A stretch of 64,000 nucleotides of DNA, taken from Candidatus Latescibacterota bacterium. Its GTDB lineage: Bacteria; Krumholzibacteriota; Krumholzibacteriia; WVZY01. This document shows, one piece after another, positions 2,264 to 57,733 of the stretch; within the stretch, counting starts at the first letter, position 1, and the number at the start of each line of letters is the position of its first letter. The notes below the pieces were generated by a model. It did no database searches. It worked only from the letters and a program-made list of their open reading frames with translations, and was not told where the DNA came from. The position numbers and the translations under genes are program-made. The stretch spans positions 52,694 through 116,693 of the forward strand of contig CAWBQK010000013.1 in NCBI GenBank assembly GCA_963791045.1, read 5' to 3'.

Positions 2264-2266
2264 TTG

Positions 2267-3608
2267 ATGATGATCGCACGTGAACAACTTCGTCTCAAGA
2301 AGCTCTCCGACAAGACACTCCTCCAGTCGCTCGACTCCCTCGTCGGAAAAGAAAAGAACTCGACCCTCGCCGTTCTTCTTCATCTGATCGAACTCGATCG
2401 CCGGCGAACGTATCTCAATCTTGGATTCCGTTCGCTCTTCGAGTACTGCACCCAGCATCTCAAGTACTCTTCCTCCTCAGCGGGGCGCCGTATCCATACG
2501 GCACGGTGCGTCGCTCGTTTTCCCGAGATCTACGAACTTCTCGTCAAAGGATCGGTAAACCTGAGCACCGTCTCGCAGGTCTCGGCGATTCTGAACGAGA
2601 GAAACAAGGATGAACTTCTCAAGGGGATCCAGGGCAAGTCGCAGCGTCAGGTCGAGCGTTTAATTTCGGTATTTCAGCCACCGTCGGCGTATCGCGATAC
2701 GGTGAAGCCTGTTCGAGTGGCCGTCGCGGCGAAACCACTGGAGGCCTCGGCGACTCACAGAACCACGGCAGAGCCTGGATTGGCCATCGACCCGGCCGGG
2801 GCCCAAAACTGGACATCTTTGTCCAATTCCTCCCGCAGCGGGAGTAAACCGATTAATGGGTATATGGCGCAATCATCTGCAGGGGAACAAGATAAGACCC
2901 AGAATGACAATGGGACAGGGGATTCTGGGGCGAAAAGCTGTTACGAACAGAAGCTTCTGATCCGGTTTTTGGCGAGTTGTGGCTTCAAGAAGAAGTACGA
3001 CGAGGCCTGCTCATTCCTGTCAAACCGTTTGCCCAATCAAACCTTTGAGACGGTCTTCGAGGCCGTACTTAGATGAGTTCATCGATCGTCACAGCCCGGA
3101 GGCGCGCCACAAACGACGGGAGAAACGCCGGACCAAGAAGCTCGAAAAACCAAAAGAGATTCGATGCGCCGGAACCGGGGCCAACGGAAAGATCGGCGAA
3201 GGCAAACGCCGAACCGAGAAGCAGAAGCCCACGGGAAAAGGAGGGGCTGTCGGGAACGAACGACGAACTGAGAAGCGGCAGCCCGCTATTGCTCGTATGG
3301 GCGCCGAAAACAAACGCGCGCGACACATCCCTGCGGCCGTACGAGACAACGTGTTCAAACGCGACGGTGGGAAGTGCACGTTCATCGGCAAAGATAACAA
3401 ACGCTGCAACTCAACTTGGGGGCTCGAGATCGACCACGTCAAGCCGTTCGCAAAGGGCGGCGGAAATACCAAAGACAACCTGAGGCTTCTGTGCGGGAGA
3501 CACAACCGGCTGGCCGCGGAGAAGGTTTACGGCAAAGAATTCATGGAAGGCCACTATGTCGAGACACGGAGGTTGAATATTGTTGAGGGAGACGTGTACT
3601 CTAGCTAA
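2267..3608 (+). pseudogene. DUF222-like N-domain / HNH endonuclease, split by a +1 frameshift near 3070
   Basis: ORF 2264..3076 carries the DUF222-like N-terminal region. The overlapping ORF 2979..3608 in another frame carries the HNH motif (VRDNVFKRDGGKCTFIG...EIDHVKPFAKGG..NLRLLCGRHN). Removing one A in CTTAGATGAG restores ...FEAVLDEFIDRHSPE. Confidence 0.6.
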
Positions 3609-6637: not shown

Positions 6638-9600
6638 TTATTTCACAATCACCCTGTATACCAGCTCGCCCGTCTCCCCAGGCGCTAGAACATAAGCTGA
6701 ATTTCTGGAGAAAGTGACGCGAAGGAGCCGCTCGCTCACACTGTACTCGCATTCGTCACCGTCGGCCGGGTCGAGAGTGAGATATTCGACGGGCGCGGCA
6801 TCTTTGTGCCACTCGACATCGAGACCCGCGCCAAAAGCGTCGCTCATGGGATCGACGAACGCTGAAACAGCATCGAGTATGAGAACACTCTGGACACTGT
6901 CCGCGCCGGTGTTTGTGTAGGAAATGGTGTAGGTCAAAACATCGCCCGGTTGCGCTTCGTCCAGGTCCACCTGTTTTTGCAGGACGAGCAACCCGACGGT
7001 TCCGTCGACAACGAGCACGGCATCCGCCGCCTGCGCGGTCGCGACGAGCGGGGTACCTCCGATTGACTGCACCGCGTCGATCAACACCTGATGGGTCGTG
7101 CCCGGCGTCGATGACGTCGGAACAAAAACGCGGAGGAACAAATTCACGTGATCGCGGCCGGCGGTCGGATCCATGTCGAGGTCACCCGGCTGCAACGCGC
7201 GATCGGCGCCATCGAACACACCGTTCCCATTTTCGTCGAGGAGGAACATCGTAACCACGCCGGAGTCCGCCGCGGCGGATAGCACAACGGCTCCGCTCGT
7301 CCCCGCGTCCAGCCGGTGCGGGAAGTCGACATACGACCCCGCGACACCGTTCAGCACGGCGCCGGTAGACAAACGAATTCCAAGAACATCGGCAAAGTTC
7401 ACAGTCAGGGTATCCCCCGCGTCGACGGTAGCCGGACCCACCGTATCGGGCGAAATCGAAACGAAACCGGGGAGATTTTGTTCAAACAACGTGATCGGCG
7501 CACCGCCGCCGTTGACAAAGGTAAACCGGCCGTCGCCGCCCGTGACCAGAGTCAACCCGCTGTTGTTCTCGACAACCGTCACCCCACCGATGCCGGCTTC
7601 GCCCGGATCATAAATGCCGTCGTGATTTTCATCGTCGAACACGATACCCGTCACGACCGCACCCGTCTGCGTCACCAGTCTCACGCTCTCCGGTGAGTTC
7701 GGCGGCAACGACGAATACGCATTGATGATCGAAGGAAACACTCCCGCCACCGCCGTCACGGGCACCTGAACATCAACAGTAAAATTCAAGGACCCACCCG
7801 CGCCGATCATGGTCGTCCAGAACGGACCGCTGTAGCTTGCAAAACCGTCACTGAGAACAACGCTCCCCGCGGGCCATCCCGCCGGAAGCTCCCAGTACAC
7901 GTAAAACGAATCGGCAAAGCTTCCAACATTCCGGGCTTCGAGAAGAGCTGAGTAACTCCCGCCGGCATTTGCCGGACGAATGGATTGACCGCCGTCTCCG
8001 GTGCCGAGTTCGCCAAAGATTCCCGACCCGCTGCCGTCGATGATGAGATCGATTCTCGGAGGACCGACCACGGTTATTCTTGCCTCGACGCTTTCGACCA
8101 CGGTGGGATCCGAGTCGGCGACAACGTCGATCACATAAGAGTAGTCGCCGGGGAACGCACCCGAGGGAAGAACAACCTCGAACGTATACAACCCAGTGGC
8201 GCCGGCGGGAATCAAACCGGTCGTGTACGGCGTCGAGCTCGAATTGAGCGCGGCATTCCAGAAGGGAATGTCGTTCCACGTAACCGTGTATTGATCCGGG
8301 TCGCCCCCTTCGTTCTGAAGCTCGAGCGTAAAGTTCAAAACCGACGGCGCCGCCTGCGTCTGAAGCGACAGCCCACCGCCCCCGCTGCCCAACAAACCGA
8401 AAACGCCATCCCCGTTTCCATCGATCACCGCATCGACAACCGTCACCGGATACACCTGAAGCCGGCCCAACACGCTGTCCATGTAGTATCTGCGATCTGA
8501 TTTCTCCGCATCGACGATAATGTCGACCAGACCACCCGTCGCGTCGAGGGGCACTACGGCCTTGAGCTCGTATACGCCTTCGGGATAACCGGCAACGGGC
8601 GATGTGCGGTTATCGAACGTCACGCGCCAACCCGGCGGCGTGTTCCACGAAATGTCGGCCGCGTCCGCGCCGCTTGGATGCAAAAGTTCCACGATGAATG
8701 TAACGGAGTCGCCCGGCGCTACGGTCCGAAGCGAGTTGCCGCCAAGCCCCGTTCCGACCGGCCCAAAAACGCCCTCACCGGACCCATCGATAATCATGTC
8801 AACCTGGCCCTCTTCGGTGATGCTCACCGCGGCCGTGACACTTTCCGACACGCGCGAATCCACGCCCGACTCCGCATGAAGGAATGAACTCCATGTCCCG
8901 TTCTTCGCATTGCCGGGAACGATAATCTTGAGTTCGACACTAAGCTCCCCGTGCGCGGGAATAGTCGCCGTCGTGTATGGGAAGGAGTAATCGACACCGC
9001 CGACAACAAGGACGGCTTTCCAGTTACCCGTCGGACGATCCCACGTCAGGGTGAAAGCATCGCTCACGCCCGCCTCATTCTGGATCGTTACGGGAAATAC
9101 AACTTCTGTGCTTTTCTGGCTGACACTCGAACTCGAACCACCCAATCCCGACTGGGTGTCGTCATAGATACCGTCGCCGTTCGAACCGACGATCATGTCC
9201 ACTCGCGGCGCATCGAGTCTCAGTGTGGCTTCGATCGAGTCATTCTTCAACGGGTCCTGGATCACGGCGGCGGCGACAATTGTCGAGTAATCGCCACCCG
9301 TCTCCGGGCTGGGCACAGTGACTTCGAGCGTCATCACGGCAGTCGCGCCGGCGGCCACAATCTGTGTGGTAAACGGCGACGAATAGGTCGCGCCCGCATA
9401 AACGATTTCCGAAACCGCGCCGGGGTCGGCCGCCCAGGTCACATCAAAAGTGGCCGGCGCCATTCCCGTATTCCTCAACTCGATCGCATAGCTCACCGTG
9501 TTGTTCCACACGTCGGTTTGTATCGAGAATCCGCCCGCGCCGTCATCACCAACCACACCAAACCCGTTCCCCTCGACGGCCATATCGGCGCCATAAGTGG

Positions 9601-10669
9601 CGAGCAGCACATCGGCGCCCAGATGCACGCTGTCGTACCGGTTGCCGAACGTTGCACTGGCAGCGTCGAGCGTGACACCATAGCTTCCCGCCGCCGCGCC
9701 GACAGGCGCGACCACAACAACGCGGTAGTCCGCCGTCTCACCGGGCGAGAGAGTCCCGGTTGTGAACGGGAACGCGGAGAGGCCGCTACCCGTATCGAGC
9801 CACACGTCCCAACCAGCGGGAGGCGTAACCGAAAGTTCATAAGTGTCCGCGTCAAGACCTTCGTTCTCCACGCGGAGATCATAGAAAATCGTGTCGCCGG
9901 GCAAGGCGCTCCAGATCGAGAATCCGCCCCCACCGGATCCGATCGCGCCGAATTCGTCATTACCGTTTCCATCCACGGCGAGGTCGACAAATTTCCGAAA
10001 GATAACCGACACATCGTCGACATACGACCACGTTTCCCAGAGATGATCGTTGGTATTTGCCTGCTGGAAGTAAACGCGAATCGTCTGCCCCGCATAGGCG
10101 GACAAGTCGAACCCGGCGGGCGCGACGCCATCGTCGCTAAACCATCCGCTGTCCTTGAAAATGTAACTTGGGTCTGTGAACATCAACGACAACACCGACT
10201 CCAGCGTGTTGTTCGCCGTGTCCCTGATCTCGGCGTCGAACGGATCGTACGGGTCCGTGTCATAACCCTGCTGCCGGACCTGGTAGGACAACGTGGCGAT
10301 GGAGATGTCCGCCGGAATCGTGACGTCCTGATACATAAAGCCGACGGCGCTCTTACGTTCGCGCGAGTACTTGAATCCCAGCCGCGCCGAGTAGCTGCCC
10401 GTGTAAGGCATGTCGGGAACAACGAGATGATCGGCAAGCGCAGGATTGAAATTGGTCCCGCGGAATGCGCCGTGAACCCAGTACGGCCCGAAGTCGCCGG
10501 TCTCGAATGACCCGTTCTGGATTAGCTCTCCCGCGAACGCGACATGGGGAATCAGAACCAGCCCGATGATCACGAGACACACGGCGGCGCACACGATTCC
10601 GGAGTTTCCACTCCGGCGCTCCACGCCGTTTACTGCCGTTGAAATATTCATCCTAGAACTTGTAATCAT
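6638..10669 (-). CDS. giant secreted surface protein with N-terminal CBM4_9-like domain, six tandem Ig-like repeats, SdrD-B-like domain and C-terminal DUF11 (OmcB-like) module
   Basis: 1343-aa ORF with signal peptide (IVCAAVCLVIIGLVLIPHVAFA). NGSFETGDFGPYW is the CBM4/9 hallmark. Six ~130-aa repeats share (V/I)DGxGxGxFG..G.GGxS...ELxNxG...W..P.GW. DENHDGIYDPGEAGIGGVTV is SdrD_B-like. The C-terminus TYTISYTNTGADSVQSV is DUF11. Start could be 10651. Confidence 0.85.
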   Translation of the reverse strand: MITSSRMNISTAVNGVERRSGNSGIVCAAVCLVIIGLVLIPHVAFAGELIQNGSFETGDFGPYWVHGAFRGTNFNPALADHLVVPDMPYTGSYSARLGFKYSRERKSAVGFMYQDVTIPADISIATLSYQVRQQGYDTDPYDPFDAEIRDTANNTLESVLSLMFTDPSYIFKDSGWFSDDGVAPAGFDLSAYAGQTIRVYFQQANTNDHLWETWSYVDDVSVIFRKFVDLAVDGNGNDEFGAIGSGGGGFSIWSALPGDTIFYDLRVENEGLDADTYELSVTPPAGWDVWLDTGSGLSAFPFTTGTLSPGETADYRVVVVAPVGAAAGSYGVTLDAASATFGNRYDSVHLGADVLLATYGADMAVEGNGFGVVGDDGAGGFSIQTDVWNNTVSYAIELRNTGMAPATFDVTWAADPGAVSEIVYAGATYSSPFTTQIVAAGATAVMTLEVTVPSPETGGDYSTIVAAAVIQDPLKNDSIEATLRLDAPRVDMIVGSNGDGIYDDTQSGLGGSSSSVSQKSTEVVFPVTIQNEAGVSDAFTLTWDRPTGNWKAVLVVGGVDYSFPYTTATIPAHGELSVELKIIVPGNAKNGTWSSFLHAESGVDSRVSESVTAAVSITEEGQVDMIIDGSGEGVFGPVGTGLGGNSLRTVAPGDSVTFIVELLHPSGADAADISWNTPPGWRVTFDNRTSPVAGYPEGVYELKAVVPLDATGGLVDIIVDAEKSDRRYYMDSVLGRLQVYPVTVVDAVIDGNGDGVFGLLGSGGGGLSLQTQAAPSVLNFTLELQNEGGDPDQYTVTWNDIPFWNAALNSSSTPYTTGLIPAGATGLYTFEVVLPSGAFPGDYSYVIDVVADSDPTVVESVEARITVVGPPRIDLIIDGSGSGIFGELGTGDGGQSIRPANAGGSYSALLEARNVGSFADSFYVYWELPAGWPAGSVVLSDGFASYSGPFWTTMIGAGGSLNFTVDVQVPVTAVAGVFPSIINAYSSLPPNSPESVRLVTQTGAVVTGIVFDDENHDGIYDPGEAGIGGVTVVENNSGLTLVTGGDGRFTFVNGGGAPITLFEQNLPGFVSISPDTVGPATVDAGDTLTVNFADVLGIRLSTGAVLNGVAGSYVDFPHRLDAGTSGAVVLSAAADSGVVTMFLLDENGNGVFDGADRALQPGDLDMDPTAGRDHVNLFLRVFVPTSSTPGTTHQVLIDAVQSIGGTPLVATAQAADAVLVVDGTVGLLVLQKQVDLDEAQPGDVLTYTISYTNTGADSVQSVLILDAVSAFVDPMSDAFGAGLDVEWHKDAAPVEYLTLDPADGDECEYSVSERLLRVTFSRNSAYVLAPGETGELVYRVIVK
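7819..9994 (-). repeat. six tandem ~390-nt coding repeats (Ig-like modules) inside the giant surface-protein gene
   Basis: Six consecutive protein-level repeats beginning (I/V)DG(N/S)GxG(V/I)FG and ending ..W..P.GW. Confidence 0.55.
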
Positions 10670-13600
10670 TGAACATCCAGTCAGAGAGAATCAGTTGAAC
10701 CCTTATGCCAAATCCTTTTTGCCACGCGTCGTTTTCTGAAAGATCCCGATCTTCGAATCCGCCGACACTGTACCCGGCGCCGATCCTCACGCGATCGAAG
10801 AAGAGATAACCGAGCTCGGCGCCCGACCCGATCTGCCTCGTCCCAACATCGACCTGCCCGAGGAACCGCACCCACAAATCCACGTCCCAGTTACGGGCAA
10901 ACCGGAACACGTACTGGGACAACAAGAGATAGTTGCGGCTCGTCTCCGAAATTCCCGTGCTGTAATTCTCGACACGTTTCGCGGCGAGTTTGAAACGCAA
11001 TTCGTGCGCGTTGTGCGGTATCACGTTGATATCCGTCGACGCGATCAGCTTCCACACGATCGCCTCGGGATCCACCGGCGAGTAGCGGTCGTACTCGGTT
11101 CTCAAGAGGAAGAGAGACCGGAACGGGGTAACCAGCGGGCGGTACACACCGGCGAGCCGGCCGTCCATGCGAAGCGACGTCTCCCGGTCATCGAATGTTG
11201 AAATCGATATCGCATCTTTAAAAATCACCGACATACCCTTGTCAAATTCTTTTCCCGCATTGAGCTTCAACACATGACGGTTGGACGCCCGCTGCCAGCG
11301 GTATTCGTATTGGGCCTCGACGAGCGACTTGCCCCGCTTGATCCGGTTGAGCCCCGTCTTAACAGCGACATATTCGTCGTCGACCTGGCTTGAGAACGAC
11401 CGGTACCCCTCGATATCAAACATCGCGGCGAGATCCCAGGTGATCGGGAACGTTTGTTTCATTCCCATGATTGTTCCCATTCGCTTGTCGTTCGCCGTCC
11501 GGTTCATCGCGTACTTCGTATACAGCTTCGAATTCTGACCCGTCTGCGCCTCGATGCCGGTGAGCAGCTGGTGGGTCGCAGGCCGGTTGTGCGCCGACAA
11601 GTACTCGTGCGTCGCCACGACCCGGTATCTCTGGAGGAAGCGGTACGACAAAGCCGAAGTCAAACGGTCGGGATACTCATCGACAATATCCGCGCCCTGG
11701 TTCCGCTCCCAATGCGTCCGAAGTTCCGCGCTGCGGCCGGCGCGGACGCCGGCGTCAAGCATGGTGAGAAAACTGCTGCTCTCGATACTTTCCTTGTCCT
11801 GCGTCGCCGCCCTGAGGCCCGCGCCAAACATCAGGGTCTTCCCTTCGTACTTTCCAAGCACGTCCACATTGCCAAGACGGTCGCCGCTATTGTCATTCCG
11901 GTGTTTGAAACCGTGCGAGTCGATGGACAGGTCGTTGCTTATTCTCAAGTGCGAGTCAAACCCCGCCTTTTCGCTGTAAAGCTCGCGCGAAGCTCCGGCA
12001 AACGACGGGTTGAGGAAATTGCCGTCGACCTTGCGGAGATAAACCGAGTGCTCACCCATGAGTTTTTTCGTGCCCGCCATCACGCGAAACGCGTTGCCTT
12101 CGCCGGCGATGTCGTCCTCGCTTCGAGCAAACTCGCCCCCCAGATCGAGCCAGCCTATCGAGTATCCGCCATCGAAGCCGTAGAGCGAATAATCCGAAAG
12201 ATGCCCGTCCTTGGCGATCGCGGTCACGCCGAGCTTGAAACGGCCGCTCTGTGCCAGTGCGCCTCGGATCCCGTAGAGATAGTCTCCCTCTTCCGACGAT
12301 TCCGCCTCGTAGATGGCGACGATCCTTACCGGGTTCAATTCGCGCGTGAATGCGGGAATCGGCTCTTTGAAAAGAATCGCGCCGTTGAAATAGTTGACGG
12401 TGAAGTCCCGATGTTCAGTGAGGGGCCTGATCTCTAGAATTCTCTCGGACTGGTAGCGGTCGCGCACCTGGAGCATGAGGTTTACAGAGTTTTCCACGAC
12501 GGGCGATTTCGACAGGAAGTAGAACCCGCTGGTGCCGTCACCCTGGATTTCATCCTGGACGGTAAAGAAATCCGTTTTGGTCACGAACGCTTCGACACCG
12601 GCGTTCCCAGAAACGATGGCGCCGTTGAGGCCGGTGGCTGATTTCTTGTAGGTGAGAAATTCTCCCTCGGTAAACGGCGACCGGAAGTCTCCGTATCGCA
12701 AGAAGGACTGCCCCTTCTCGAGGGCGATGTAATTGCCGCCCTGCGCGGGCGCCTCGTAGTGAAGCTCGGACGCGTCGCCGTACGCCGTGTACTGACGCTC
12801 GGGGTTGAAAGTCTGAAGGAGCGGATCGTCGTAGCGCTTATCGGTGTCGATACGCGCGGTCAAATTGATTCCCGCGTACGACGTCCCCTGGATAAAGAAA
12901 CGCGACTCGCCTTTGAATCGAACACCCTCGTAGTAATCTTCGAGACCCAACGGATCGCCGCTCCCCGATGAGCTGAAAGCGCCGAGACGCCCCTCGATGA
13001 TTCCCGACATAAACATCGACCGGTGTGCCGGAACAAAAGCGACAACACATGTCGCCCTGTAACCGTGCGACTCGACGACAATATTCCGGCGCCCCGTTGT
13101 CAGGCTCGGCCGGATGTGCACGAGGAACTGTCCGTTCTCGCTCGAAATCTGCAGGCCGCGCTGATCCGGATCTTCGTCGGAGTTAGTAACAAGCGAATCG
13201 CCTTCGATCACGGTGGCTATGAGACCGTTTATCGTCGGGAGACCGAGTTCGTCGCGGAGTTCGACCAGAATCGTCTCGCGTGACTGCCCGTCCGCGGGAA
13301 GGATGACACGATCGGGCACTATCGCGATATCCACGGGTTTGCCCGCGAGCGCGACCGACACGCTGTCGACAATCGTTTCGGCTCCATTGACGGGGGTCGC
13401 TTCGAGTCGAGGCGTGTTCCAACCGTTCTTGATGCGCACGGCGTAATAAGTGATCTCTTCGAATCGTTCGTCGAGATGGATTTCTTTTTTACCGATCCGG
13501 TCCGCGGGAACGAGTTCGTCACCGCTGAACAATTCGTACTTGCTGCCCAGCGGGACCCGGGCCGTGACTTCGATCTGGTCGCGCTTAATCACAACCGATC

Positions 13601-13976
13601 GGTCGGGCGGGTCAAGGAGTCCGAGCGCCTTTACCTTGTCCTGGCCGCCGCGTTCGTCCGGCGGACTCTGTTCAGCATCGCCGGCAACTCCGTTCGCTCC
13701 GCCAACGGAATAACTCGCCGTGCTGTCCCCGGGGGCAAAACCGACACCGGCGGCGCGCAAACGCATGGCGAGATCTTTGTCCTCTTCCCACGAAACCAGC
13801 GTGTAATACTCCGTCTCTTTGCCGCCCCATCCGTGGGCGAATGGCTCGAGGACGACCGTGGAATCGAGCCACGATGACGAAGCGTCGGGAACGTCCGGCC
13901 ACGCGGGCTCGGTAATCGACCGGTTTGCTTCACGCCACGGGACTTTGCGGCTCGTGCTTGTCTCCACGCTTCCCAA
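10653..13976 (-). CDS. large predicted outer-membrane beta-barrel protein (family unassigned), C-terminal ...NDYKF
   Basis: 1107-aa ORF with long alternating amphipathic beta-strands and a C-terminal aromatic residue (F), typical of OMPs. No signal peptide. The first start is TTG, only 12 codons after an in-frame TGA that ends the upstream OmpA-domain ORF. Start and independence are uncertain. Confidence 0.7.
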   Translation of the reverse strand: MGSVETSTSRKVPWREANRSITEPAWPDVPDASSSWLDSTVVLEPFAHGWGGKETEYYTLVSWEEDKDLAMRLRAAGVGFAPGDSTASYSVGGANGVAGDAEQSPPDERGGQDKVKALGLLDPPDRSVVIKRDQIEVTARVPLGSKYELFSGDELVPADRIGKKEIHLDERFEEITYYAVRIKNGWNTPRLEATPVNGAETIVDSVSVALAGKPVDIAIVPDRVILPADGQSRETILVELRDELGLPTINGLIATVIEGDSLVTNSDEDPDQRGLQISSENGQFLVHIRPSLTTGRRNIVVESHGYRATCVVAFVPAHRSMFMSGIIEGRLGAFSSSGSGDPLGLEDYYEGVRFKGESRFFIQGTSYAGINLTARIDTDKRYDDPLLQTFNPERQYTAYGDASELHYEAPAQGGNYIALEKGQSFLRYGDFRSPFTEGEFLTYKKSATGLNGAIVSGNAGVEAFVTKTDFFTVQDEIQGDGTSGFYFLSKSPVVENSVNLMLQVRDRYQSERILEIRPLTEHRDFTVNYFNGAILFKEPIPAFTRELNPVRIVAIYEAESSEEGDYLYGIRGALAQSGRFKLGVTAIAKDGHLSDYSLYGFDGGYSIGWLDLGGEFARSEDDIAGEGNAFRVMAGTKKLMGEHSVYLRKVDGNFLNPSFAGASRELYSEKAGFDSHLRISNDLSIDSHGFKHRNDNSGDRLGNVDVLGKYEGKTLMFGAGLRAATQDKESIESSSFLTMLDAGVRAGRSAELRTHWERNQGADIVDEYPDRLTSALSYRFLQRYRVVATHEYLSAHNRPATHQLLTGIEAQTGQNSKLYTKYAMNRTANDKRMGTIMGMKQTFPITWDLAAMFDIEGYRSFSSQVDDEYVAVKTGLNRIKRGKSLVEAQYEYRWQRASNRHVLKLNAGKEFDKGMSVIFKDAISISTFDDRETSLRMDGRLAGVYRPLVTPFRSLFLLRTEYDRYSPVDPEAIVWKLIASTDINVIPHNAHELRFKLAAKRVENYSTGISETSRNYLLLSQYVFRFARNWDVDLWVRFLGQVDVGTRQIGSGAELGYLFFDRVRIGAGYSVGGFEDRDLSENDAWQKGFGIRVQLILSDWMFNDYKF

Positions 13977-14012
13977 ATCCGCCCGCGTACTCGAACCACC
14001 ATACGAACTCGA

Positions 14013-16589
14013 TCATCCGCCCCCGTGTCCCCGACCGTCGAGTTGAATCCGACAACGGAACGAATCTCGCGCACCCGATGCGTGTCGGACGCCGCCGCGG
14101 TAAACGACACCTTGCACTCGATTCCGCGCGATCGGGCAAATCCACCGACGACATATCGGCCATCGACTTCGGCGATCCTCCCCGCCGCACGTGACGCGCG
14201 TCTTTGCGTCATCGAACACATCCGGGATTTCGAGCGCGAGATCAATCTCGACCGGGATTATCGCGTCGGAGGAGATTCCCCAAATCACAAACACGTGGAA
14301 CGAATCGGCGACGGTTGTCACGTTACTCATGTCGGCTTCGACACGGTCGATTTCCGCATGGTCCTCGACACCGGTTCCCGGCGGAACAAAACTGACCTCG
14401 ACACGACGGTTCTCTGCGCGGCCTTCGCGCGTCGTGTTCGTCGCCACCGGCGTAGTGTCGCCGTGGCCTCGTGCGACGATCCGCTCTTGGGGAATCCCTT
14501 TGGCGGACAGATACCGCTTAACCGCGCCGGCACGCGCCTCGGAGAGTTCCTGGTTCGAAGCAAATTCCGCGTTGTGGATCGGAATGCTGTCGGTGTGACC
14601 TTCCAGATAGACGATCCAACCAGGATTCTTCTCGAGAAATTCGACAATCGGGTTGAGATAGTGCAGCGTCCCGGTTTTCAGATACGATTTGCCGATTTCG
14701 AACAGCGAACTTGGAATTGACGGCATCCGGTAAAGGGCCTGTTGTTGTTTCCGGATGCTCACCATTTCCTGGCAGGATATCTGACGCGACACCCGCGGCC
14801 TTTCGCGGGCCCGTTCGGGCATCGGGAATGACACCACCGCGTGGCCGCTGGGGATCATGTGGACCAACCGTTCGGTGCCGAACACTGCGTTGGTTTTTGT
14901 GGATATGGCCTCGATGTCGACGATGTCGGGCGCGAGCGTGCTTTCATCGATCCGGATTACACGAAAACCGGAAAACACCCACGGGACCGAGAAGCGCCCC
15001 GTCGAGTCGGTCAACGCGTACTCCCCGCTCTCGAGAAATACGCCGACCCTCGGGAGTCCCCTCTCTCCGTGATCACGCTTGCCGTTTTTGTTTGCGTCGA
15101 CAAACACATCGCCAAGGAGGAAACCCTCGTCACCAAACATATCGTTTGCAATCTTGAGCGCGTTGACCACGGGCCCCGCGTAAAGATTGCGCGCGAGCGC
15201 CGTGCCGACAGCGTTTCCGGTGATCTTCGTCCAGCCGTTCTTGACGCGACTGTTTGCGACAAACTTGATCACCGCCTGCCGGCGTTCCCCGGGAGCGAGT
15301 GATCCAACCTGCCATGCGAGGGTCTTTCCGTCGAGCTCAAAATCCGGACTCGAGAGAAACTCGAGTGTCGGCTGAACCGTTTCGTCCACAACGACATTGT
15401 CGGCGCGGACGCTGTCGCTCCGGTTGGCAACCGCGACAACCAGGGTGACGATGTCACCGAAGGCCGCCGTGTTTTCTTTGAAAGTTTGTTCGAGACTGAG
15501 AACCGCCGACGGGTTGAACGGTTCGGCAAGAACAATCCGGTCGATTGTTTCGTTCGTCCGCGTCGTGTCGAGGAGCGAACGCGCTCGCAGACGAATCGAT
15601 AACGAGTCCTGCCCGACGTGATAGAACGACTCATCTTCGGTGGTGACGTGAACTTGAAGCGTCCGTCTTTCACCGCTTTCCAGCTGACCGAGAAGCACCG
15701 CGCCCGAACTGGCAGGAACCGTTCGAAGCCCGTTGCCGGCGCTGTCCCGCACGGTTACCTGAACCCCGGGCGGCCAACCGGTCGAATCGGCGGGCTCGAT
15801 CCGAATTATGTCCGGATCGCGGCCATCGTTAAGAATTTCGTTTTCAAAAACAAGTGTCTGCGTCGACACTCCAACGCTGCGGCGCGTGACGTCATCGGGA
15901 CTACCCTCTCCGCCCGGCAACGCCTTCGCGTTCTCGAGCGGTCCGACGTGAAGCGGTTGGACTGGATCCGCCTGTGTGAGAATGTGAACAACGCTCGATG
16001 CCCGGCGCTCGAGCGTGTCGACACCCGTGGCCGCCGAAATATCGACATAACTATCCCCACCACCCTGCCCCGAAGTGAGAACGTACATCGTTCCCAGGTC
16101 CGTCGACTCTCCGGGCCCGAGGTTGAGGAAGGATCGGTCTTCCTCTCCGGGATCGAAAGCGGAATTCCCGTTCGAATCGTGATAGAAAACGACATCACTG
16201 ATTCCAATCGTCGACGCGGACAAGATCGCGTGATCGACCGAGATCGAATCGGCGACGTTCCCCAGGTTTCGCACCACGAAACCGCACTGAACGGTATCCG
16301 CCTCGAAACCGAACAGCGAATACGCGGGACTCGCTACCGTGCCGGCCGGCGTAAGCGAAATCTGGAAGAAAGGACCCACTGGTGTGGTCGCCGGATTGGA
16401 CCGAACGGCGTGTCGGAAGCCGTTCTGAGTGTACTCGGCGCTGGACTGGGAAATGATTTCATAACCAAGAGGCGGGACGGCGGCCTGCACGTTTTGCCAA
16501 ACAAAAAACACCCCTACGACGACCCAACACCATAACAGGCGCTTTAACAATGGGTTATAGGGATGAATTCTCACTTGATGATCTCTCAA
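14013..16589 (-). CDS. secreted protein with SdrD-B-like domain and OmpA-like peptidoglycan-binding domain
   Basis: Signal peptide (LLWCWVVVGVFFVWQNVQAA). DANKNGKRDHGERGLPRVGVFLESGEYALTDSTGRFSV is SdrD_B. aa 620-735 (WIVYLEGHTDS...NQELSEARAGAVKRYL...NRRVEVSF) is OmpA_C-like. The last ~60 aa are an R/G-rich, junk-like tail. Confidence 0.8.
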   Translation of the reverse strand: MRDHQVRIHPYNPLLKRLLWCWVVVGVFFVWQNVQAAVPPLGYEIISQSSAEYTQNGFRHAVRSNPATTPVGPFFQISLTPAGTVASPAYSLFGFEADTVQCGFVVRNLGNVADSISVDHAILSASTIGISDVVFYHDSNGNSAFDPGEEDRSFLNLGPGESTDLGTMYVLTSGQGGGDSYVDISAATGVDTLERRASSVVHILTQADPVQPLHVGPLENAKALPGGEGSPDDVTRRSVGVSTQTLVFENEILNDGRDPDIIRIEPADSTGWPPGVQVTVRDSAGNGLRTVPASSGAVLLGQLESGERRTLQVHVTTEDESFYHVGQDSLSIRLRARSLLDTTRTNETIDRIVLAEPFNPSAVLSLEQTFKENTAAFGDIVTLVVAVANRSDSVRADNVVVDETVQPTLEFLSSPDFELDGKTLAWQVGSLAPGERRQAVIKFVANSRVKNGWTKITGNAVGTALARNLYAGPVVNALKIANDMFGDEGFLLGDVFVDANKNGKRDHGERGLPRVGVFLESGEYALTDSTGRFSVPWVFSGFRVIRIDESTLAPDIVDIEAISTKTNAVFGTERLVHMIPSGHAVVSFPMPERARERPRVSRQISCQEMVSIRKQQQALYRMPSIPSSLFEIGKSYLKTGTLHYLNPIVEFLEKNPGWIVYLEGHTDSIPIHNAEFASNQELSEARAGAVKRYLSAKGIPQERIVARGHGDTTPVATNTTREGRAENRRVEVSFVPPGTGVEDHAEIDRVEADMSNVTTVADSFHVFVIWGISSDAIIPVEIDLALEIPDVFDDAKTRVTCGGEDRRSRWPICRRWICPIARNRVQGVVYRGGVRHASGARDSFRCRIQLDGRGHGGG

Positions 16590-16683
16590 GGATACAATCC
16601 GCCATATACGGGGCTGGCGGATGAATGGCTGAAGCCACTCATCCGCCTGCCTTGCTCAAATATTGTCCGTCTTGTCGGACGAA

Positions 16684-19386
16684 CTACTCGGCAATGATCC
16701 GAACTATAAAACTCACACCGGTTGCTGACGCTCCACCGGGTTCAAGAACTCCGGCGAGAACAAAACGCACATGCGTAACGTTCGCGTCGAAGTTGACCGG
16801 TGCACCGCCACCACCGCTGACCGGCGTGTACGTCCACGACGTACCGCCGTCATTCGAATACTGCGGCGTTACGCCGGTAATCGAAGCCGGTGGTGTGCCA
16901 GGGTCAACGGAACCGACACGGAACTGCGTGAACGCCGGAACCGCGTCTATGACCGCAAGGGTCTGAAGCGAATCCGTTCCGAGGTTCTGATAGTCCGTGG
17001 TGTATGTAAGCTCCGAGCCCGGTGTTTGCGGGCCCGCGGGAGCCACTGCCTTGGTGATCTGGAGATCACCGGCTGTTATCAACGTGATGTCGATCGCGTC
17101 GTCGCTCACGAGCGTGACGTTGCCTGTAGCGGTCAACGTGCCCGTCTCAACCGTTCCAACGGTCGCCGTACCGGGAACCATGACCTGAGCGATAACCGTA
17201 ACGCTGGCGCCGGGGTTGAGCGTTACATCGGCCAGAGGGTTGTTGAGCGTATCGTAGAACAGATACGTCCATCCCTGCGACGAGACGTACGACAGCGCGA
17301 ACGTATCGGCCACGTTACCGGTATTGGTTACCGTGTGCGTGTAGCGGATCGTCCCGCCGGGTGTCGTGCTCCCGTTCTGATCGGGAGAGAAATCAACCGC
17401 CGCAAAGTTGTTTATCGTAACTGTGTTGGCGATAGTGTCCAGAATGGTTCCGTTGGCAACCGAGGTCGCTGTAAACGACACGGGGTTGATACCCGGAGCC
17501 GCACCCGCAGGAACATCCACACGGGCGACGATATTTACCTCGGCTCCACCCGCGATCGGTCCCACCGATACCAGTGTCGTGGTTTCGCCGGGATCGAGCA
17601 CACCGTTGCCGTTGGGATCGTCGTAGAACGTGACGTTCCATCCCGCGGGCACCGCATAGGTGAGCGTGTAGGAATCGCTTCCCCCACCCGTATTAACAAC
17701 ATCGAGCGGGAAATCAACCGACGTCGCCGGGTCGGCGGGCAGATCCAACGGATTGTTGTCCGTGCCCGGACCGGCAAGGTAGTTACCGATGTCCACGCTG
17801 ACCGGCGTCACGTTGAGGACGCGATCAGTCGTAAGGTTGAACTCGGTTGGATCGATCGTCGACTGGGCACGGATAACCGCGTCAAACGGTCCGCCGGCAG
17901 CCTGGCTGCCCGGGATTACCAGTCGAACGATAATGTCGACACTGTCGCCCGGCGCAACGGGGCCCACATCGGGGAGTCCGTCAAAACCGGTATCGGCGAG
18001 CGGAGTCACGCCATCTGACTGGAGCAAAAGAACGCCCCAGGTGGCGGGAAGTGTCGACGCCGGATCGGTGAGAATATTGATCTGATCGGCGGCATTGCCG
18101 TCGTTTCTTACGGTATTGACGAAGTCCACGGTCGTGCCCGCATCGGCGTTGGCGAGAGTCTGGAGATCGTCGTTGTACAGGGGAGGCGTACCGGCACCGG
18201 CGTCACCGGCAGGACCGATTACGATGTCCGCGAGACCGCCGATGGTCACCAGCGCGTTATTCGAAACGATCGTTGTCGGATCCGGTGTCACGGCGGTGTT
18301 GTCGATATAGGTCACGGCCGCGGTGTTACCCAGTGAACCGGCGCCCATGCCGATCGGAACGGTCGCCTGATACACAAAGTTGTAACCCTGACCCGGAATG
18401 ATCGCGCCGTTGGTCACATAACCGACGGCAAGGTCGCCCGGCCCTGCTACGAGGCCCCAGTTCCATGTTTCGGGATCTCCAGCGGTCGACTCGCCGGCGG
18501 GAAGATAAAGAACCGTTCCACCCGCTGGCGTACCAAACGGCACACCGGAAATTGCGAGAGGATTTCCCGTCGAAGGATCGGTCGGAATAATATCCCAGAG
18601 CAACACACCGGTAAGACCAACGGAACCAACGGTTACGCCGTTCGCGTTGTTGTTACCCGTGTTTGAACCGGAAAGCGTGTAGGTTACCTGGTTGCCTTCG
18701 AATACGATCGCGGGCGCGGCGGCGAGATTGGCCGTCATTACCGCGTCGTTCACAACGTCGGTCCTGTGATAATTGCGTGTGTCGATCTGTGCCGCGTCTC
18801 CAACAGAGACACCGGTCACACCGACGTAAGCAAGTTCACCCGAAACGGCGGCCGCGGGCACTGTGTAGGCGACGATAACACTGATTGTCTGCCCGGCGGT
18901 GAGAATCCCCGTATTGCCCGAAATGCCCCCGGCGCTCAGAACGGGTTCACCAAGATCCACCATGCCGTTCGAGTTGAGATCGTGATAAATCGTGACATCG
19001 ACGTTGTTGAGCAACATTGTTGAATTCGCAACGTCAACATTGGGAGACAACGTAAAGTCATCGTCGTCATTACCCGTGTTGGTCAGATCGTATCTATAAT
19101 ATACGGTCATGCCGGGCAGTGCATTCTGAGCCATCGCCGGAGTCAGGGGAGGCGTTTCACCCGAATCATCGGGGAGAATCGACACACCAAACACCGGAAG
19201 AACGATGGTGATGACTTCATTTGATGTCGCGGAATAATTGTTCCCACCCATGTCCTGGTAGGTCGCAGATGACCGGTTCCGGATCTGCGTACCGGCAGGC
19301 GTTGCCTGCGCAAAGACAGTTGTTGCCGTGACCGCGACGATCAACAGCAACATCACGGGAAGGGTGATGTAGACTCGTCTACTCAT
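16684..19386 (-). CDS. secreted 900-aa surface protein with multiple Ig-like/DUF11 repeats and C-terminal DUF11 module
   Basis: Signal peptide (MLLLIVAVTATTVFAQA). Repeated YxDxNGNG.DPGE and TNTGN motifs. The C-terminus LTYTTDYQNLGTDSLQTLAVIDAVPAFTQF is DUF11. No T9SS CTD. Confidence 0.85.
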   Translation of the reverse strand: MSRRVYITLPVMLLLIVAVTATTVFAQATPAGTQIRNRSSATYQDMGGNNYSATSNEVITIVLPVFGVSILPDDSGETPPLTPAMAQNALPGMTVYYRYDLTNTGNDDDDFTLSPNVDVANSTMLLNNVDVTIYHDLNSNGMVDLGEPVLSAGGISGNTGILTAGQTISVIVAYTVPAAAVSGELAYVGVTGVSVGDAAQIDTRNYHRTDVVNDAVMTANLAAAPAIVFEGNQVTYTLSGSNTGNNNANGVTVGSVGLTGVLLWDIIPTDPSTGNPLAISGVPFGTPAGGTVLYLPAGESTAGDPETWNWGLVAGPGDLAVGYVTNGAIIPGQGYNFVYQATVPIGMGAGSLGNTAAVTYIDNTAVTPDPTTIVSNNALVTIGGLADIVIGPAGDAGAGTPPLYNDDLQTLANADAGTTVDFVNTVRNDGNAADQINILTDPASTLPATWGVLLLQSDGVTPLADTGFDGLPDVGPVAPGDSVDIIVRLVIPGSQAAGGPFDAVIRAQSTIDPTEFNLTTDRVLNVTPVSVDIGNYLAGPGTDNNPLDLPADPATSVDFPLDVVNTGGGSDSYTLTYAVPAGWNVTFYDDPNGNGVLDPGETTTLVSVGPIAGGAEVNIVARVDVPAGAAPGINPVSFTATSVANGTILDTIANTVTINNFAAVDFSPDQNGSTTPGGTIRYTHTVTNTGNVADTFALSYVSSQGWTYLFYDTLNNPLADVTLNPGASVTVIAQVMVPGTATVGTVETGTLTATGNVTLVSDDAIDITLITAGDLQITKAVAPAGPQTPGSELTYTTDYQNLGTDSLQTLAVIDAVPAFTQFRVGSVDPGTPPASITGVTPQYSNDGGTSWTYTPVSGGGGAPVNFDANVTHVRFVLAGVLEPGGASATGVSFIVRIIAE

Positions 19387-37678: not shown

Positions 37679-37769
37679 CCGAATTGTTAACATTGTCAAT
37701 TGTTGAACGTGTCACTTATGCCGCACATCGAAATCGCCGCGAACGAATGCCCCAACGTCAATTTGGGTA

Positions 37770-37798
37770 TTGACTTTGGCAATGAATTCACGTATCTT
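37770..37798 (+). promoter_or_regulatory. candidate sigma-70 promoter for the atp operon (TTGACT-17-TATCTT)
   Basis: TTGACT at 37770-37775 and TATCTT at 37793-37798, about 115 nt upstream of the atpZ-like start. Confidence 0.35.
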
Positions 37799-37911
37799 GC
37801 CGTGGCTATTTTGAGCGTTGTTATCCTATCGGTAACGCTGGCGGCCGGGCCCTTTTGGATCGGTTTGTAGTTCCCTTGCAAAAGAATAATCAAGAAGACC
37901 ACTACTGGGCG

Positions 37912-38130
37912 ATGCGCCAGGTTGGTCTGCTTACAACGATCCCCGTCCTGCTCGCGGTATCTCCATTAATTGGTTTTTTTATGGGTCAGTTTCTCGACAA
38001 GAAACTGAATACGGATCCGATTTTCACAATCGGATTTCTCATTCTCGGTTTCATCGCTGGTGCAAGACAGACCGCGCGGGTCATCAAACTCGCCAGCAAA
38101 GAAAAGAAGAGAAACGACGATGGGTCTTGA
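37912..38130 (+). CDS. AtpZ/AtpI-family small membrane protein (F-ATPase-associated)
   Basis: Two TM helices (MRQVGLLTTIPVLLAVSPLIGFFMGQFLD...IGFLILGFIAGARQTARVI), directly upstream of atpI/atpB. Confidence 0.6.
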   Translation: MRQVGLLTTIPVLLAVSPLIGFFMGQFLDKKLNTDPIFTIGFLILGFIAGARQTARVIKLASKEKKRNDDGS

Positions 38131-38527
38131 ATTCCTGACACGAGTGAGAAAGACATCCATCGTATCGGGTGCCGTCGTAGCTCTTATCATGTTCGTTTAC
38201 GCCAGCCCCGCTGCAGCCATCGCTTTTGCCCTGGGGTGTGCGTGGTCGCTCGTTAACCTGCACATGATTCTGGTTCTCGTCCGGCTCGTCGTCAACGATC
38301 CGGAAAACCATAAGATCCGAATAGCCGTAGTGACGATAATTAAAGTCCCTGCGTTGTACACGGCAGGATATTTTCTTCTCACAACCGGCTACTTGCCTGT
38401 CATGGCTTTGCTTTCGGGTTTTATCTGGCCGCTTTTCGTGGTGTTTCTCAAGGCGGGAGGGCGGCTGGTTCTCGGTCTGGACCACCCCAACCGGGGCGCT
38501 CAAACCCAAAAAGGTATTCGACAATGA
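38120..38527 (+). CDS. atpI: ATP synthase protein I-like membrane protein
   Basis: Approx 135 aa, 3-4 TM helices, immediately upstream of atpB, overlaps the previous gene by 11 nt. Confidence 0.6.
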   Translation: MGLEFLTRVRKTSIVSGAVVALIMFVYASPAAAIAFALGCAWSLVNLHMILVLVRLVVNDPENHKIRIAVVTIIKVPALYTAGYFLLTTGYLPVMALLSGFIWPLFVVFLKAGGRLVLGLDHPNRGAQTQKGIRQ

Positions 38528-39384
38528 CACGATACGTGACGAACAAGCTCTACGCTCTCGCCGCCGCGACATCGATCTTTCTCGTGTCGGCGAGTGGTTA
38601 TGCCGCCGCATCCGGCGAAGGCGAGGCGCACGAACTCCCCAACTTTATCACGGTTATATATCACTTCCTCGTAGGTACCACTGTCGGCGAATTTCTCCAC
38701 AAGTGGGAGAACCTGATCTTTTCCTTTCTCATCGCCGGCCTTCTTATATTGATCGTTAGAATCGCCTCAAAGAATCCCAAGATGATCCCGGGGAAGTTCC
38801 AGAACGCCATCGAGTTCGTCATCGAAGAGCTGGAAAAGTTCATCGTCGGCATTCTAGGTCCACGCGGCAAAAAGTTCGTCCCGTTTCTTGGCACCCTCTT
38901 TCTCTATATTCTTCTGATGAACTACATGGGATTGATTCCCCTTATGAAAGCGCCCACAGCCGGGATCAACCAGACCATTGCCCTGGCCTTGTGCGTTTTC
39001 GCCTATGTCCAGTTCACCGGGCTCAAAGAAAACGGTTTTCTTGGTTATCTCGACCATCTCGCGGGGCAGCCGCGGTCGATGATGCAGTACTTCTTCGTAC
39101 CGATGATGTTTCCGCTTCACATCATCGAGGAACTTGCCAAACCGATGAGCTTATCGCTTCGTCTCTTTGGTAACGTAACCGGTGAAGACATTCTGATTTT
39201 CATTTTTGTCGGTCTTGGGGTTGGATTGATGAGTTTTTCACACCTCCCCATCGGTATCCCGCTGCAGCTGCCGTTCTACTTTCTTGCGCTGCTTACGGGA
39301 TTTATTCAAGCACTCGTGTTCATGTTGTTGAGTACGATTTATTTCTCAATGATGCTTCCGCATGATGAGGATGAGCATCACTAG
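38524..39384 (+). CDS. atpB: F0F1 ATP synthase subunit a
   Basis: Conserved R-containing helix (LSLRLFGNVTGEDILI) and overall subunit-a topology. Confidence 0.95.
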   Translation: MTRYVTNKLYALAAATSIFLVSASGYAAASGEGEAHELPNFITVIYHFLVGTTVGEFLHKWENLIFSFLIAGLLILIVRIASKNPKMIPGKFQNAIEFVIEELEKFIVGILGPRGKKFVPFLGTLFLYILLMNYMGLIPLMKAPTAGINQTIALALCVFAYVQFTGLKENGFLGYLDHLAGQPRSMMQYFFVPMMFPLHIIEELAKPMSLSLRLFGNVTGEDILIFIFVGLGVGLMSFSHLPIGIPLQLPFYFLALLTGFIQALVFMLLSTIYFSMMLPHDEDEHH

Positions 39385-55065: not shown

Positions 55066-56719
55066 ATGCGGTATCGAGGAGGACGACAAATGAGCCGGTT
55101 ATATACAAATTCGATTGCGGTCTTTTTAATCCTGGGCGTGCTACTTTCACTGTCGTCCTGCGGTGGGGACACCGACGTCCAAAAGGCCGCGCCTACCGGC
55201 ACTCCCATAGTGGGCGGAGTCGTCTACCGCCATCTCGAATCAGACTGCAAAACATTGAACTGGGTGCTTTATAACACCATATACGAAAATCACGTTCTCC
55301 GCCATCTTTACGACTATCTTCTCGACTACGATGAGAACCTCGACATTGTACCCGTGCTCGCAAAGAACTATGACGTCAGCAAAGACGACTTCGTATCACG
55401 GTAACCTTGAGAGACTCTCTCTTCTGGCACGACGGTGTCCCGATAACCTCGCAGACGTCAAATTCACCGTCGACAAGATCCTTGATCCCACGATACCCGC
55501 GGTCAACAAAGAGGGCTGGTTCTCGCGTCTCGACAACGTCGAGATCGTTGACGACCCAACATCGAGTTCATATGGAAGGAGCCATATGGGCCCTAGTCTC
55601 CACGCACTCACCCAGCTCGCCCCAATTCCGGAGCATATCTATGGCAAGGGTAATTTCCGTGAACACCCCGCCAACCGGCACCGGTGGGCAGCGGCGCTTT
55701 CAAATTCGAAGAATGGCGAACGGGCCAAATCATCAGCGTCGTACGAAACGAAGACTACTATGGACCTCCGGCCCATCTCGATCGCGTCGTTTTCAAGATC
55801 ATCCCGGACAGGATCCGTGGCGCTCGGCGCGCTCAAGACCGGCGAACTGGATGAAATGCGGGTCAACCAGCCCCAGTGGGAAACCAAACCGATGGCGGCG
55901 ACTTCCCGCAAAAAGTTCGACAAGAATCACTATTATGTGCCTCTATACAATTACATCGCCTGGAATTGCCGATCGATTTGGTTCCGAGACAAACGGGTGC
56001 GCCTGGCGATGACGATGCTTTTTGATCGGGAGACGATCAACGAGGAGATTTATTCGGGTCACGCCAAGATCGTCACCGGGCCGTTTTATATAAACTCATG
56101 GGCCTACGACTCATCGATCGAACCGGTGCCATACAACCCCGATGGGGCTCGACGTATCCTCGATGAAGCGGGTTGGACGGACAGCGACAGCGACGGCATT
56201 CGCGACAAGGACGGGATAAAATTCGAATTCGATTTTTCGTTATCAGCGGAAGCAGGACGGCGCGACGGTTCGCGGAACTCCTTCAGGAAGCATGCCCGAA
56301 AGTGGGAATCGTAGTCAATATCAGGCGACTAGAGGGAGCGACGTTTTTTGACAAAATGTTCAAAGGCGAGTACGACGGGACGGCGTCTCGGATGGCGCCT
56401 GGACAACGATCCCGACATGTATGACACCTTTCATTCAACGCAGGTTCCCCCGATCGGCATCAACCATACGTTCTACAGCAACCCCGAAGTTGACCGTCTC
56501 CTCGAACAGGGACGCGTCGAGTTCGACCACGACAGGAGAAAACAGATTTATCACCGTGTTCACCGGTTGATTCACGATGACCAACCTTACACGTTTATAA
56601 ATTCGGTCCCCGAAAAAAGACCGATCAGCAAACGAATCGAGAACGTAACGTTTTCACCCGACGGACCGTTCAATTTTTACCCCGGCGCCAATTACTGGTA
56701 CACCAAAGACGAAGAATAA
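55066..56719 (+). pseudogene. ABC transporter substrate-binding lipoprotein, family 5 (Opp/Dpp-type), broken by at least five frameshifts
   Basis: Lipoprotein signal (LSLSSCGG). SBP_bac_5 segments lie in alternating frames across ORFs 55066..55404, 55407..56012, 55331..56314, 56173..56424 and 56348..56719. Confidence 0.65.
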
Positions 56720-56755
56720 AAGGGCCGACCACAAACATCTCCATCCCGGATAAGC

Positions 56756-57733
56756 ATGCTTACATACACGCTTCGGCGTTTGGCATATTTGATCCCCACA
56801 CTCTTCGGCATTACCGTCGTTACTTTCGTCATTATATCCCTCGCGCCTGGGAACCCGGTTGAACTCATCCAGTCGGGGAAAATGAGCAGCGGGATATCTC
56901 TCGAAGCCTACAACGAGATGCTCCATCTCTACGGTCTCGACCAGCCCATTCACGTCCGCTATCTCGTTTGGCTCAAACGGCTCGCAACATTTGACTTCGG
57001 CAACTCCTTTCTCGATCACCGTCCGGTTATGGACAAAATCATCGAGCGGCTGCCCCCAACACTGATACTGAACCTGGTGTCGCTCGTAATCGCGTTGTTC
57101 CTGGCCATCCCGCTCGGACTCCACTCCGCGGTACGCCAGTTTTCGTTGTTTGACAAGCTTGGAGGCACCGTTCTCTACATGCTCTATTCGCTTCCCGAGT
57201 TCTGGGTGGCACTCGTTCTTATTATGGTATTTGGGGTCAAGCTGGGGCTCCTCCCGTTTATAGGGCTGGAATCAACCGGGGCGCGCGACCTCGGATTTTT
57301 CCCGCTTCTTTGGGATAGAGTCCTCCACCTGATCCTTCCGACAATATGTCTCGTTTACGGTTCACTGGCGTATCTGTCACGTTTTGTTCGGGGATCGACA
57401 CTCGAAATCATTCATCAGGATTACATAAGGACTGCGAGGGCCAAAGGGCTTGATGACACGACCGTCGTTTACAAACACGTATTCAAAAACACGTTGATAC
57501 CGGTATTGACGCTTCTTGGAATACTGCTGCCGACGTTGATCAGCGGCAGCGTGATCATCGAGTATATTTTCAGTTGGCCGGGAATCGGCCAGTTGTTCTT
57601 CGAGGCCGTCATGTCGCGCGATTACCCTACAGTAATGGGACTGAGTTTCATGACGGCCGTGCTCGTGCTCCTCAGCACGCTCGTTGCCGATTTGCTTTGC
57701 GCCTGGGTCGACCCACGGATAACCTATGACTAA
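56756..57733 (+). CDS. ABC peptide/nickel transporter permease (DppB/OppB-like)
   Basis: N-terminus MLTYTLRRLAYLIPTLFGITVVTFVI and EAA-loop region (IRTARAKGLDDTTVVYKHVFKN). Confidence 0.9.
   Translation: MLTYTLRRLAYLIPTLFGITVVTFVIISLAPGNPVELIQSGKMSSGISLEAYNEMLHLYGLDQPIHVRYLVWLKRLATFDFGNSFLDHRPVMDKIIERLPPTLILNLVSLVIALFLAIPLGLHSAVRQFSLFDKLGGTVLYMLYSLPEFWVALVLIMVFGVKLGLLPFIGLESTGARDLGFFPLLWDRVLHLILPTICLVYGSLAYLSRFVRGSTLEIIHQDYIRTARAKGLDDTTVVYKHVFKNTLIPVLTLLGILLPTLISGSVIIEYIFSWPGIGQLFFEAVMSRDYPTVMGLSFMTAVLVLLSTLVADLLCAWVDPRITYD

Follow-up and report, generated by a model that had tools for sequence, protein, structure and literature searches.

An OmpA-domain/giant-barrel gene split by clustered frameshifts in a Candidatus Latescibacterota contig, most likely through consensus errors of the assembly

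Introduction

How can an outer-membrane β-barrel be exported if the reading frame that encodes it has neither a signal peptide nor a credible start? The question is raised by a locus of a Candidatus Latescibacterota bacterium (GenBank assembly GCA_963791045.1, contig CAWBQK010000013.1, positions 52,694 to 116,693; these 64,000 nucleotides are the window of our analysis and coordinates count from its first letter). On its minus strand an open reading frame (ORF) for a protein with an OmpA-type domain ends at a TGA and, in the same frame and shortly downstream, a second long ORF for a barrel protein opens. A first-pass annotation made from the letters of the sequence had left three accounts of this arrangement, namely one protein of ~1980 residues interrupted by a nonsense or indel lesion, translational read-through of the UGA, or two genes of which the second has an unusual internal start. 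Indel errors of error-prone assemblies are known to fragment genes (Kastor, PMC12007338; Sereika et al. 2022, PMC9262707). Here we show that both ORFs belong to one gene whose conserved reading leaves the frame ahead of the TGA and returns to it afterwards, and that other genes of the window carry clustered frameshifts as well. We consider it likely that this single gene of ~1,980 codons was split by frameshifts that are consensus errors of the metagenome-assembled genome (MAG).

Results

The conserved reading bypasses the TGA

The layout that drew attention to the locus is present in the sequence as described. Both ORFs lie in the frame with coordinate modulo 3 = 2 (frame 2 below; the frame with modulo 3 = 1 is frame 1), and 12 sense codons separate the TGA from the start of the downstream ORF. 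That two ORFs fall in one frame has a chance of 1 in 3 and alone carries no weight. The downstream ORF has its first methionine at residue 70 and its N-terminus lacks any visible hydrophobic, signal-like stretch, while the final ~58 codons of the upstream ORF are indeed the R/G-rich, junk-like sequence that had been noticed (including EDRRSRWPICRRW). TGA ends 4 of the 25 confident ORFs of the window and is thus an ordinary stop here, as the first-pass annotation had held. Separate gene calls for the two halves, P0079 (853 aa) and P0001 (1104 aa), exist on one public contig of 334,932 bp, so the lesion belongs to the deposited assembly and was not introduced in our analysis.

To follow the frame of the conserved protein, seven orthologs were compared with the window over their junction regions by ungapped tblastn, and each of them gave the same path: frame 2 down to 14175 (...VTCGGED), frame 1 over 14176-14051 and, from about 13868 (STVVLEPF) onwards, frame 2 once more. 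Frame 1 is open from 14245 to 13631 on the minus strand, and over 14176-14051 it encodes IAEVDGRYVVGGFARSRGIECKVSFTAAASDTHRVREIRSVV, a segment with 50-61% identity to P0003, P0005, P0006, P0007, P0008, P0011 and P0066. The flanks show about 40-55%; the shifted segment is therefore as conserved as its surroundings and bears no sign of decay. The earlier statement that neither of the other two minus-strand frames looks protein-like at this place was thus wrong. Since the conserved reading here runs in frame 1, the TGA is out of frame and, judged from the sequence, is not a codon of the real gene.

Codon usage agrees with this path. In a sliding log-odds analysis frame 1 scores best of the three over the segment, and a seven-state Viterbi segmentation assigned 16523-14190 to one frame, 14189-14012 to another and 14011-10656 back to the first. 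Path scores were -42.8 for an unshifted reading, 34.3 for two shifts and 41.0 for three; the difference of 6.8 nats between the latter two roughly equals the penalty for an additional switch and is not decisive.

The first shift is well placed, with a codon-usage optimum for the switch at 14176. Candidate lesions are one extra base, for instance in a G4 run, or two missing bases, and the spacing between the CGG and GF motifs, a constant 15 residues in the orthologs, is 14 or 15 in the window depending on the repair that is assumed. The return to frame 2 could be made by a single -1 shift, at 14012 or shortly beyond, or by two further +1 shifts, at about 14026-14013 (in a G5 run) and at about 13980-13935; within the linker, the similarity of the third frame to the ortholog linkers is at chance level. 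A repaired junction peptide aligned continuously with P0005 by BLASTP (E = 2e-32). Neither tandem repeats nor an inserted element were found at the junction, where the short repeats seen are at chance level. The linker at 13870-14050, between the conserved post-OmpA segment and STVVLEPF, is about 37 residues longer than that of P0005, the closest full-length ortholog; the extra length may be a true expansion of the linker or may belong to the corrupted patch.

Orthologs are single fused proteins

A protein search with the downstream ORF as query found 78 homologs, mostly from MAGs of Krumholzibacteria and Latescibacteria. Nearly all complete ones measure 1,800-1,940 aa and carry PF00691, often together with PF01345, in the N-terminal half and barrel sequence in the C-terminal half; about 50 orthologs are single proteins of this length with the N-to-C layout of the window. 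Over its full length (residues 1-1938) P0005 covers window positions 16589-10656 in tblastn at 58% identity, with its residue 1 at 16589, and a Krumholzibacteriia locus (L001) has one ORF of 1,923 aa across the junction. This collinear homology over both halves places the gene in an unnamed family of OmpA-barrel proteins of ~1,900 aa in Krumholzibacteria and Latescibacteria. The alignment of orthologs, which the first-pass annotation had proposed as a check, thus shows fused proteins and a frame that leaves and returns around the TGA.

The other arrangement that had been envisaged for orthologous loci, in which the barrel has a gene to itself, complete with start and signal peptide, did not turn up among close relatives. 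The only stand-alone relatives with signal peptides of their own are the very distant P0070 and P0076 (21-27% identity, about 1,100-1,170 aa), and every ortholog above 40% identity that lies on a long contig is either fused or visibly truncated by a lesion. Further searches added little. A profile scan of genome contigs with the alignment as query returned mostly generic OmpA-domain matches, with L001 as the sole true ortholog; a genome contig scan with a single-protein query and a metagenome contig scan for close relatives gave no match. The protein search with the upstream ORF retrieved P0079, which is the gene itself, and four partial or distant homologs, without any independent near-identical fragment over the junction.

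Several short homologs on long contigs are themselves visibly broken: P0066 ends in R-rich junk and P0056 starts inside the post-OmpA domain. P0004 is without most of the OmpA region. Fragmentation of this gene family appears to be common in public assemblies.

A predicted exported protein with one putative N-terminal signal peptide

Read as one gene, the locus would encode a predicted exported outer-membrane protein of about 1,979 aa, with a putative signal peptide followed by DUF11/Ig-like repeats, an OmpA-type peptidoglycan-binding domain, a linker, two Ig-like domains and a giant C-terminal barrel (Table 1). The PF00691 match is complete (E = 7.4e-19, profile positions 1-98 of 98, residues 629-728 of the upstream ORF), while the OmpA-type models of NCBIfam all stayed below their own cut-offs. 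The downstream ORF matched no family in a search of Pfam and NCBIfam. Its AlphaFold2 model, built with an alignment of 57 sequences, has a mean pLDDT of 78.8; residues 1-115 lie below 50 and are predicted to form a disordered internal linker of the full protein, and residues 322-1097 form a continuous ladder of more than 30 consecutive strands with pLDDT mostly 80-95. The ORF ends in ...YKF. Foldseek against the PDB returned large outer-membrane barrels (LptD, MtrB, Deinococcus SlpA, SprA, TonB-dependent receptors and FimD) at low TM-scores, matches that speak for the fold class only. The model is in line with the initial description of this ORF as a barrel, and predicts a very large one. The missing export signal of the barrel would be explained by the single putative N-terminal signal peptide of the fused gene.

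Two side observations concern the surroundings of the gene and its family. At 6638-19386 on the minus strand the repaired gene of ~1,979 codons stands between two large genes for DUF11/NPCBM_assoc/CARDB-like surface proteins of 1,343 aa and 900 aa. The C-terminal module of ~1,100 aa, for which neither Pfam nor NCBIfam has a model, is kept in ~1,900-aa proteins of Krumholzibacteria and Latescibacteria MAGs.

Clustered frameshifts in two other genes and an independent assembly

The junction is not the only broken place in the window. The coding sequence of a sensor histidine kinase is spread over at least six frame segments. Once the frame had been corrected by hand at six places, its Pfam matches were full-length (GAF, profile positions 2-133 of 133; PAS, 2-109 of 113; HisKA, 1-64 of 66; HATPase_c, 2-110 of 111), and in the uncorrected sequence the PAS match stops at profile position 56 and the HATPase_c match at 67. 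A gene for an SBP_bac_5 lipoprotein on the plus strand shows a similar pattern of frame changes. In all we count at least 16 frameshift lesions, which together occupy about 3.5 kb of the window's 64 kb; the remaining long ORFs, the largest of them 1,343 aa, are clean.

At two places the window could be compared with an independent assembly (Logan, run ERR11523668) that contains the same population. One of its contigs (L081) corresponds to window positions 22386-15688 with 1 mismatch and no gaps in 6,699 bp. Another (L082) corresponds to 55814-58911 and contains the SBP_bac_5 gene as one intact ORF (L082 1-906), that is, the lesions of this gene are absent from the independent assembly. Relative to it the window has four 1-nt indels, at about 55881, 55905, 56244 and 56386, and about 49 substitutions (about 8%), all within 55814-56411; the next 2.5 kb have only 4 mismatches. 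The third codon position accounts for 29 of the 49 substitutions, and 28 are synonymous. The patch resembles an allele of a divergent strain into which indel errors have been introduced, as would be expected where a consensus assembly follows a variant path with poor support. The Logan contigs compared end at 15,688 and 7,365, on either side of the junction. Exact-product look-ups with P0001, P0079, the neighbour of 1343 aa and one guessed partial product gave no Logan contig over the junction, and those with the neighbours of the kinase gene gave none either.

Two further regions of the plus strand caught our eye. At 2264-3608 the ORFs 2264..3076 and 2979..3608 overlap and appear to be the two parts of a single HNH-endonuclease gene that is frameshifted near 3073 (...FEAVL / LDEFIDRHSPE...); the HNH domain lies in the second. 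At 37700-38530 the Viterbi path makes several short frame alternations over what by eye look like small membrane-protein ORFs. As to sequence composition, the window has 463 GATC sites (about 1 per 138 nt), 688 TCGA sites and few CTAG sites (22). The presence of GATCG near four inferred shift sites was considered as a mark of systematic error linked to methylation or restriction and rejected as a post hoc and non-significant association: GATCG/CGATC occurs 388 times in 64 kb and about 10% of positions are equally close by chance.

Table 1. Coordinates of the gene, its domains and the other frameshifted genes in the window
Feature	Position	Strand	Details
Upstream ORF (OmpA-domain)	16589..14013	minus	858 aa; frame coordinate mod 3 = 2
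Downstream ORF (barrel)	13976..10653	minus	1107 aa, TTG start; frame coordinate mod 3 = 2
TGA ending the upstream ORF	14015-14013	minus	out of the conserved frame: GAT-GAT-CGA in frame mod 3 = 1
N-terminal part of the single gene	14175..16589	minus	frame mod 3 = 2; homology down to ...VTCGGE(D) at 14175
Frameshift site 1	14161..14184	minus	+1: one surplus base in the window, or two bases missing; context GGCGGGGAGGATCGCC, with G4 run
Conserved coding segment	14012..14176	minus	frame mod 3 = 1; IAEVDGRYVVGGFARSRGIECKVSFTAAASDTHRVREIRSVV, then linker start GFNSTVGDTGADD
Zone of return to frame mod 3 = 2	13870..14026	minus	non-conserved linker; approximate position
C-terminal part of the same gene	10653..14012	minus	frame mod 3 = 2; ends ...MFNDYKF-stop
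Putative signal peptide	16589-16482	minus	...KRLLWCWVVVGVFFVWQNVQA/AVPP; by inspection and alignment with ortholog N-termini
DUF11 (PF01345)	15500-15252	minus	Pfam 39.8 bits, cutoff 24.6
SdrD_B-like, weak	15113-14997	minus	Pfam 21.7 bits, below cutoff
OmpA peptidoglycan-binding domain (PF00691)	14705-14406	minus	Pfam 68.3 bits, cutoff 27.2
Two predicted Ig-like β-sandwich domains	about 13622-13032	minus	downstream ORF residues 119-315, AlphaFold2
Predicted very large β-barrel	about 13013-10686	minus	downstream ORF residues 322-1097, AlphaFold2
GAF-PAS-HisKA-HATPase_c sensor histidine kinase	46950-45270	minus	about six frameshifts: ~46735, 46615, 46540, 46480, 46230, 45440
SBP_bac_5 (peptide/nickel-type) lipoprotein gene	about 55160-56720	plus	about eight frame changes

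Discussion

The above results suggest a simple origin of the puzzling layout. In a gene that spans 16589..10653 on the minus strand, two or three single-base indels would displace the frame over about 165-250 nt (from 14176 to about 14012-13935). Reading this stretch on in the original frame would yield R/G-rich nonsense and run into an out-of-frame TGA, and with the frame restored soon after, a second long ORF would open in the frame of the first; a displaced and then restored frame thus gives the look of two in-frame ORFs parted by one TGA. The indels probably lie in local patches that are of low quality or heterogeneous between strains, and in the organism itself the gene most likely yields a single, intact protein. 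That there is one gene, that its first shift lies at the place given above, that the TGA is out of frame and that frameshifts cluster elsewhere in the window can be read directly from the data; that the junction indels themselves are artefacts is suggested by analogy with the SBP_bac_5 gene. Of the three accounts with which we began, the first holds in so far as it supposed a single gene with an indel lesion, and fails as to the nonsense codon, the lesion being two or three frameshifts.

Some observations weigh against errors of the consensus. The artefact status of the junction indels depends on the analogy just named, as the independent contigs that were compared end on either side of 13,900-14,200. 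The third-position bias in the SBP_bac_5 gene points to a real divergent allele and not to pure noise, which leaves room for a minor strain with true indels. The junction linker, finally, exceeds that of P0005 by ~37 aa and has one or two shifts of its own.

On an alternative view the indels are genuine, and the giant OmpA/barrel gene, the kinase gene and the SBP_bac_5 gene are recent pseudogenes in this strain, of which at most a truncated periplasmic or surface OmpA-DUF11 protein of ~800 aa would be made and no barrel. The lesions are present in the sequence as deposited, a distinct strain does exist if the third-position bias is taken at face value, and split or truncated copies occur in other MAGs (P0066, P0056 and P0004), but the split calls are equally well explained by assembly error. 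Neutral decay would scatter its lesions, whereas here two or three sit close together, in 250 nt of a gene of 5.9 kb that has no other frameshift or stop; it is disfavoured because the shifted segment is conserved like its flanks, fully so at the protein level, and the remaining 5.7 kb of the gene are without lesion. The clustered pattern is moreover alike in three unrelated genes, and the one that could be tested, the SBP_bac_5 gene, is intact in the independent assembly. We therefore regard genuine pseudogenes as unlikely. A special form of this view, a minor strain of this Krumholzibacteria-like population with short imported divergent tracts that are riddled with real frameshifts and affect no fewer than three genes for surface or sensor proteins (the giant OmpA-barrel protein, the sensor kinase and the peptide-binding protein), seems to us quite improbable; if it were true, the clustered indels would reflect a patchy, recombination-associated inactivation of genes, and the OmpA-DUF11 half might still be made in truncated form.

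The remaining two accounts fare worse. A recoding event, be it UGA read-through or selenocysteine insertion at 14015-14013 or a programmed ribosomal frameshift, could be thought to join two ORFs that share a frame and are parted by a single TGA, the more so as a Shine-Dalgarno-like GGAGG stands just 5' of the first shift site. But the conserved protein is encoded in the other frame for about 55 codons before the TGA, and the orthologs follow that frame from 14176 to at least 14051, so that read-through would insert about 58 nonsense residues; the conserved frame does not pass through the TGA at all. For a programmed shift of the prfB type (+1) or at a -1 heptamer there is no slippery codon at 14177 (GAG GAU CGC) and no potential for re-pairing, the shift is not conserved, and the orthologs are unshifted and need none. 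The frameshifts of the two other genes, more than 14 in number, have no motif in common, and TGA serves as a regular terminator in this genome segment. We give hardly any credence to recoding. It is also very improbable that there are two genes, an OmpA-domain protein and a barrel protein initiated at TTG 13976 or GTG 13967. Gene callers did report two products, and the distant P0070 and P0076 stand alone with signal peptides, but the called start lacks one and is followed by a linker of ~115 residues, predicted to be disordered, that every ortholog has in the interior of the protein. Segment 14176-14051, although conserved, would be part of neither gene, and the close orthologs on long contigs are fused or visibly truncated. 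An internal start is thus rejected, as the barrel ORF begins inside a linker and its close orthologs are single fused ORFs. Taken together our results favour one gene split by consensus errors.

The configuration is real in the deposited sequence, yet most probably not a biological feature. For an in-frame stop between long ORFs of a metagenome contig we suggest a three-frame comparison with orthologs as the first test; in the present case it turned a puzzle of read-through and of a barrel without signal peptide into a gene split by frameshifts. As the contig holds several low-quality patches, other oddities of the window are suspect too. The uncharacterised family, whose ~1,900-aa members unite an OmpA domain with a giant barrel, might deserve some modest interest of its own, and may act as a tether between outer membrane and peptidoglycan or as a component of surface assembly.

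It is useful to set the protein beside known systems. Like OmpA, Pal and MotB, it has a full-length PF00691 domain, here together with a predicted outer-membrane β-barrel. In OmpA itself a small barrel of 8 strands precedes the peptidoglycan-binding domain, whereas here this domain is N-terminal to a barrel of ~780 residues, in a product of ~1,980 aa that also has DUF11 and Ig-like domains. Deinococcus SlpA likewise has a module for binding the wall at its N-terminus and a huge barrel at its C-terminus. Our model of the C-terminal half is placed among such giant outer-membrane barrels (SlpA, PDB 8AE1; LptD, 5IV9; MtrB, 6R2Q; SprA, 6H3J) with TM-scores of 0.1-0.3 and about 8-10% identity, a likeness of fold class and not of family membership, and in contrast to large-barrel proteins such as SlpA it has no SLH domain.

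At the level of the gene, the +1 frameshift of prfB and the recoding of UGA as selenocysteine are superficially alike, with an in-frame UGA between coding stretches and a Shine-Dalgarno-like motif near the shift, but our locus differs from them in having neither a slippery codon nor a stop at the shift, in the lack of conservation of the shift and in a UGA that is out of frame. The closer likeness is to the indel-fragmented genes of metagenome and long-read assemblies, in which single-base indels split a long conserved ORF. As there, several of the lesions here lie at short G runs and, for the SBP_bac_5 gene, do not recur where the same population was assembled independently; the difference is that they come in clustered patches, in the SBP_bac_5 gene with about 8% substitutions, which points to a poorly supported strain-variant path rather than to uniform homopolymer error.

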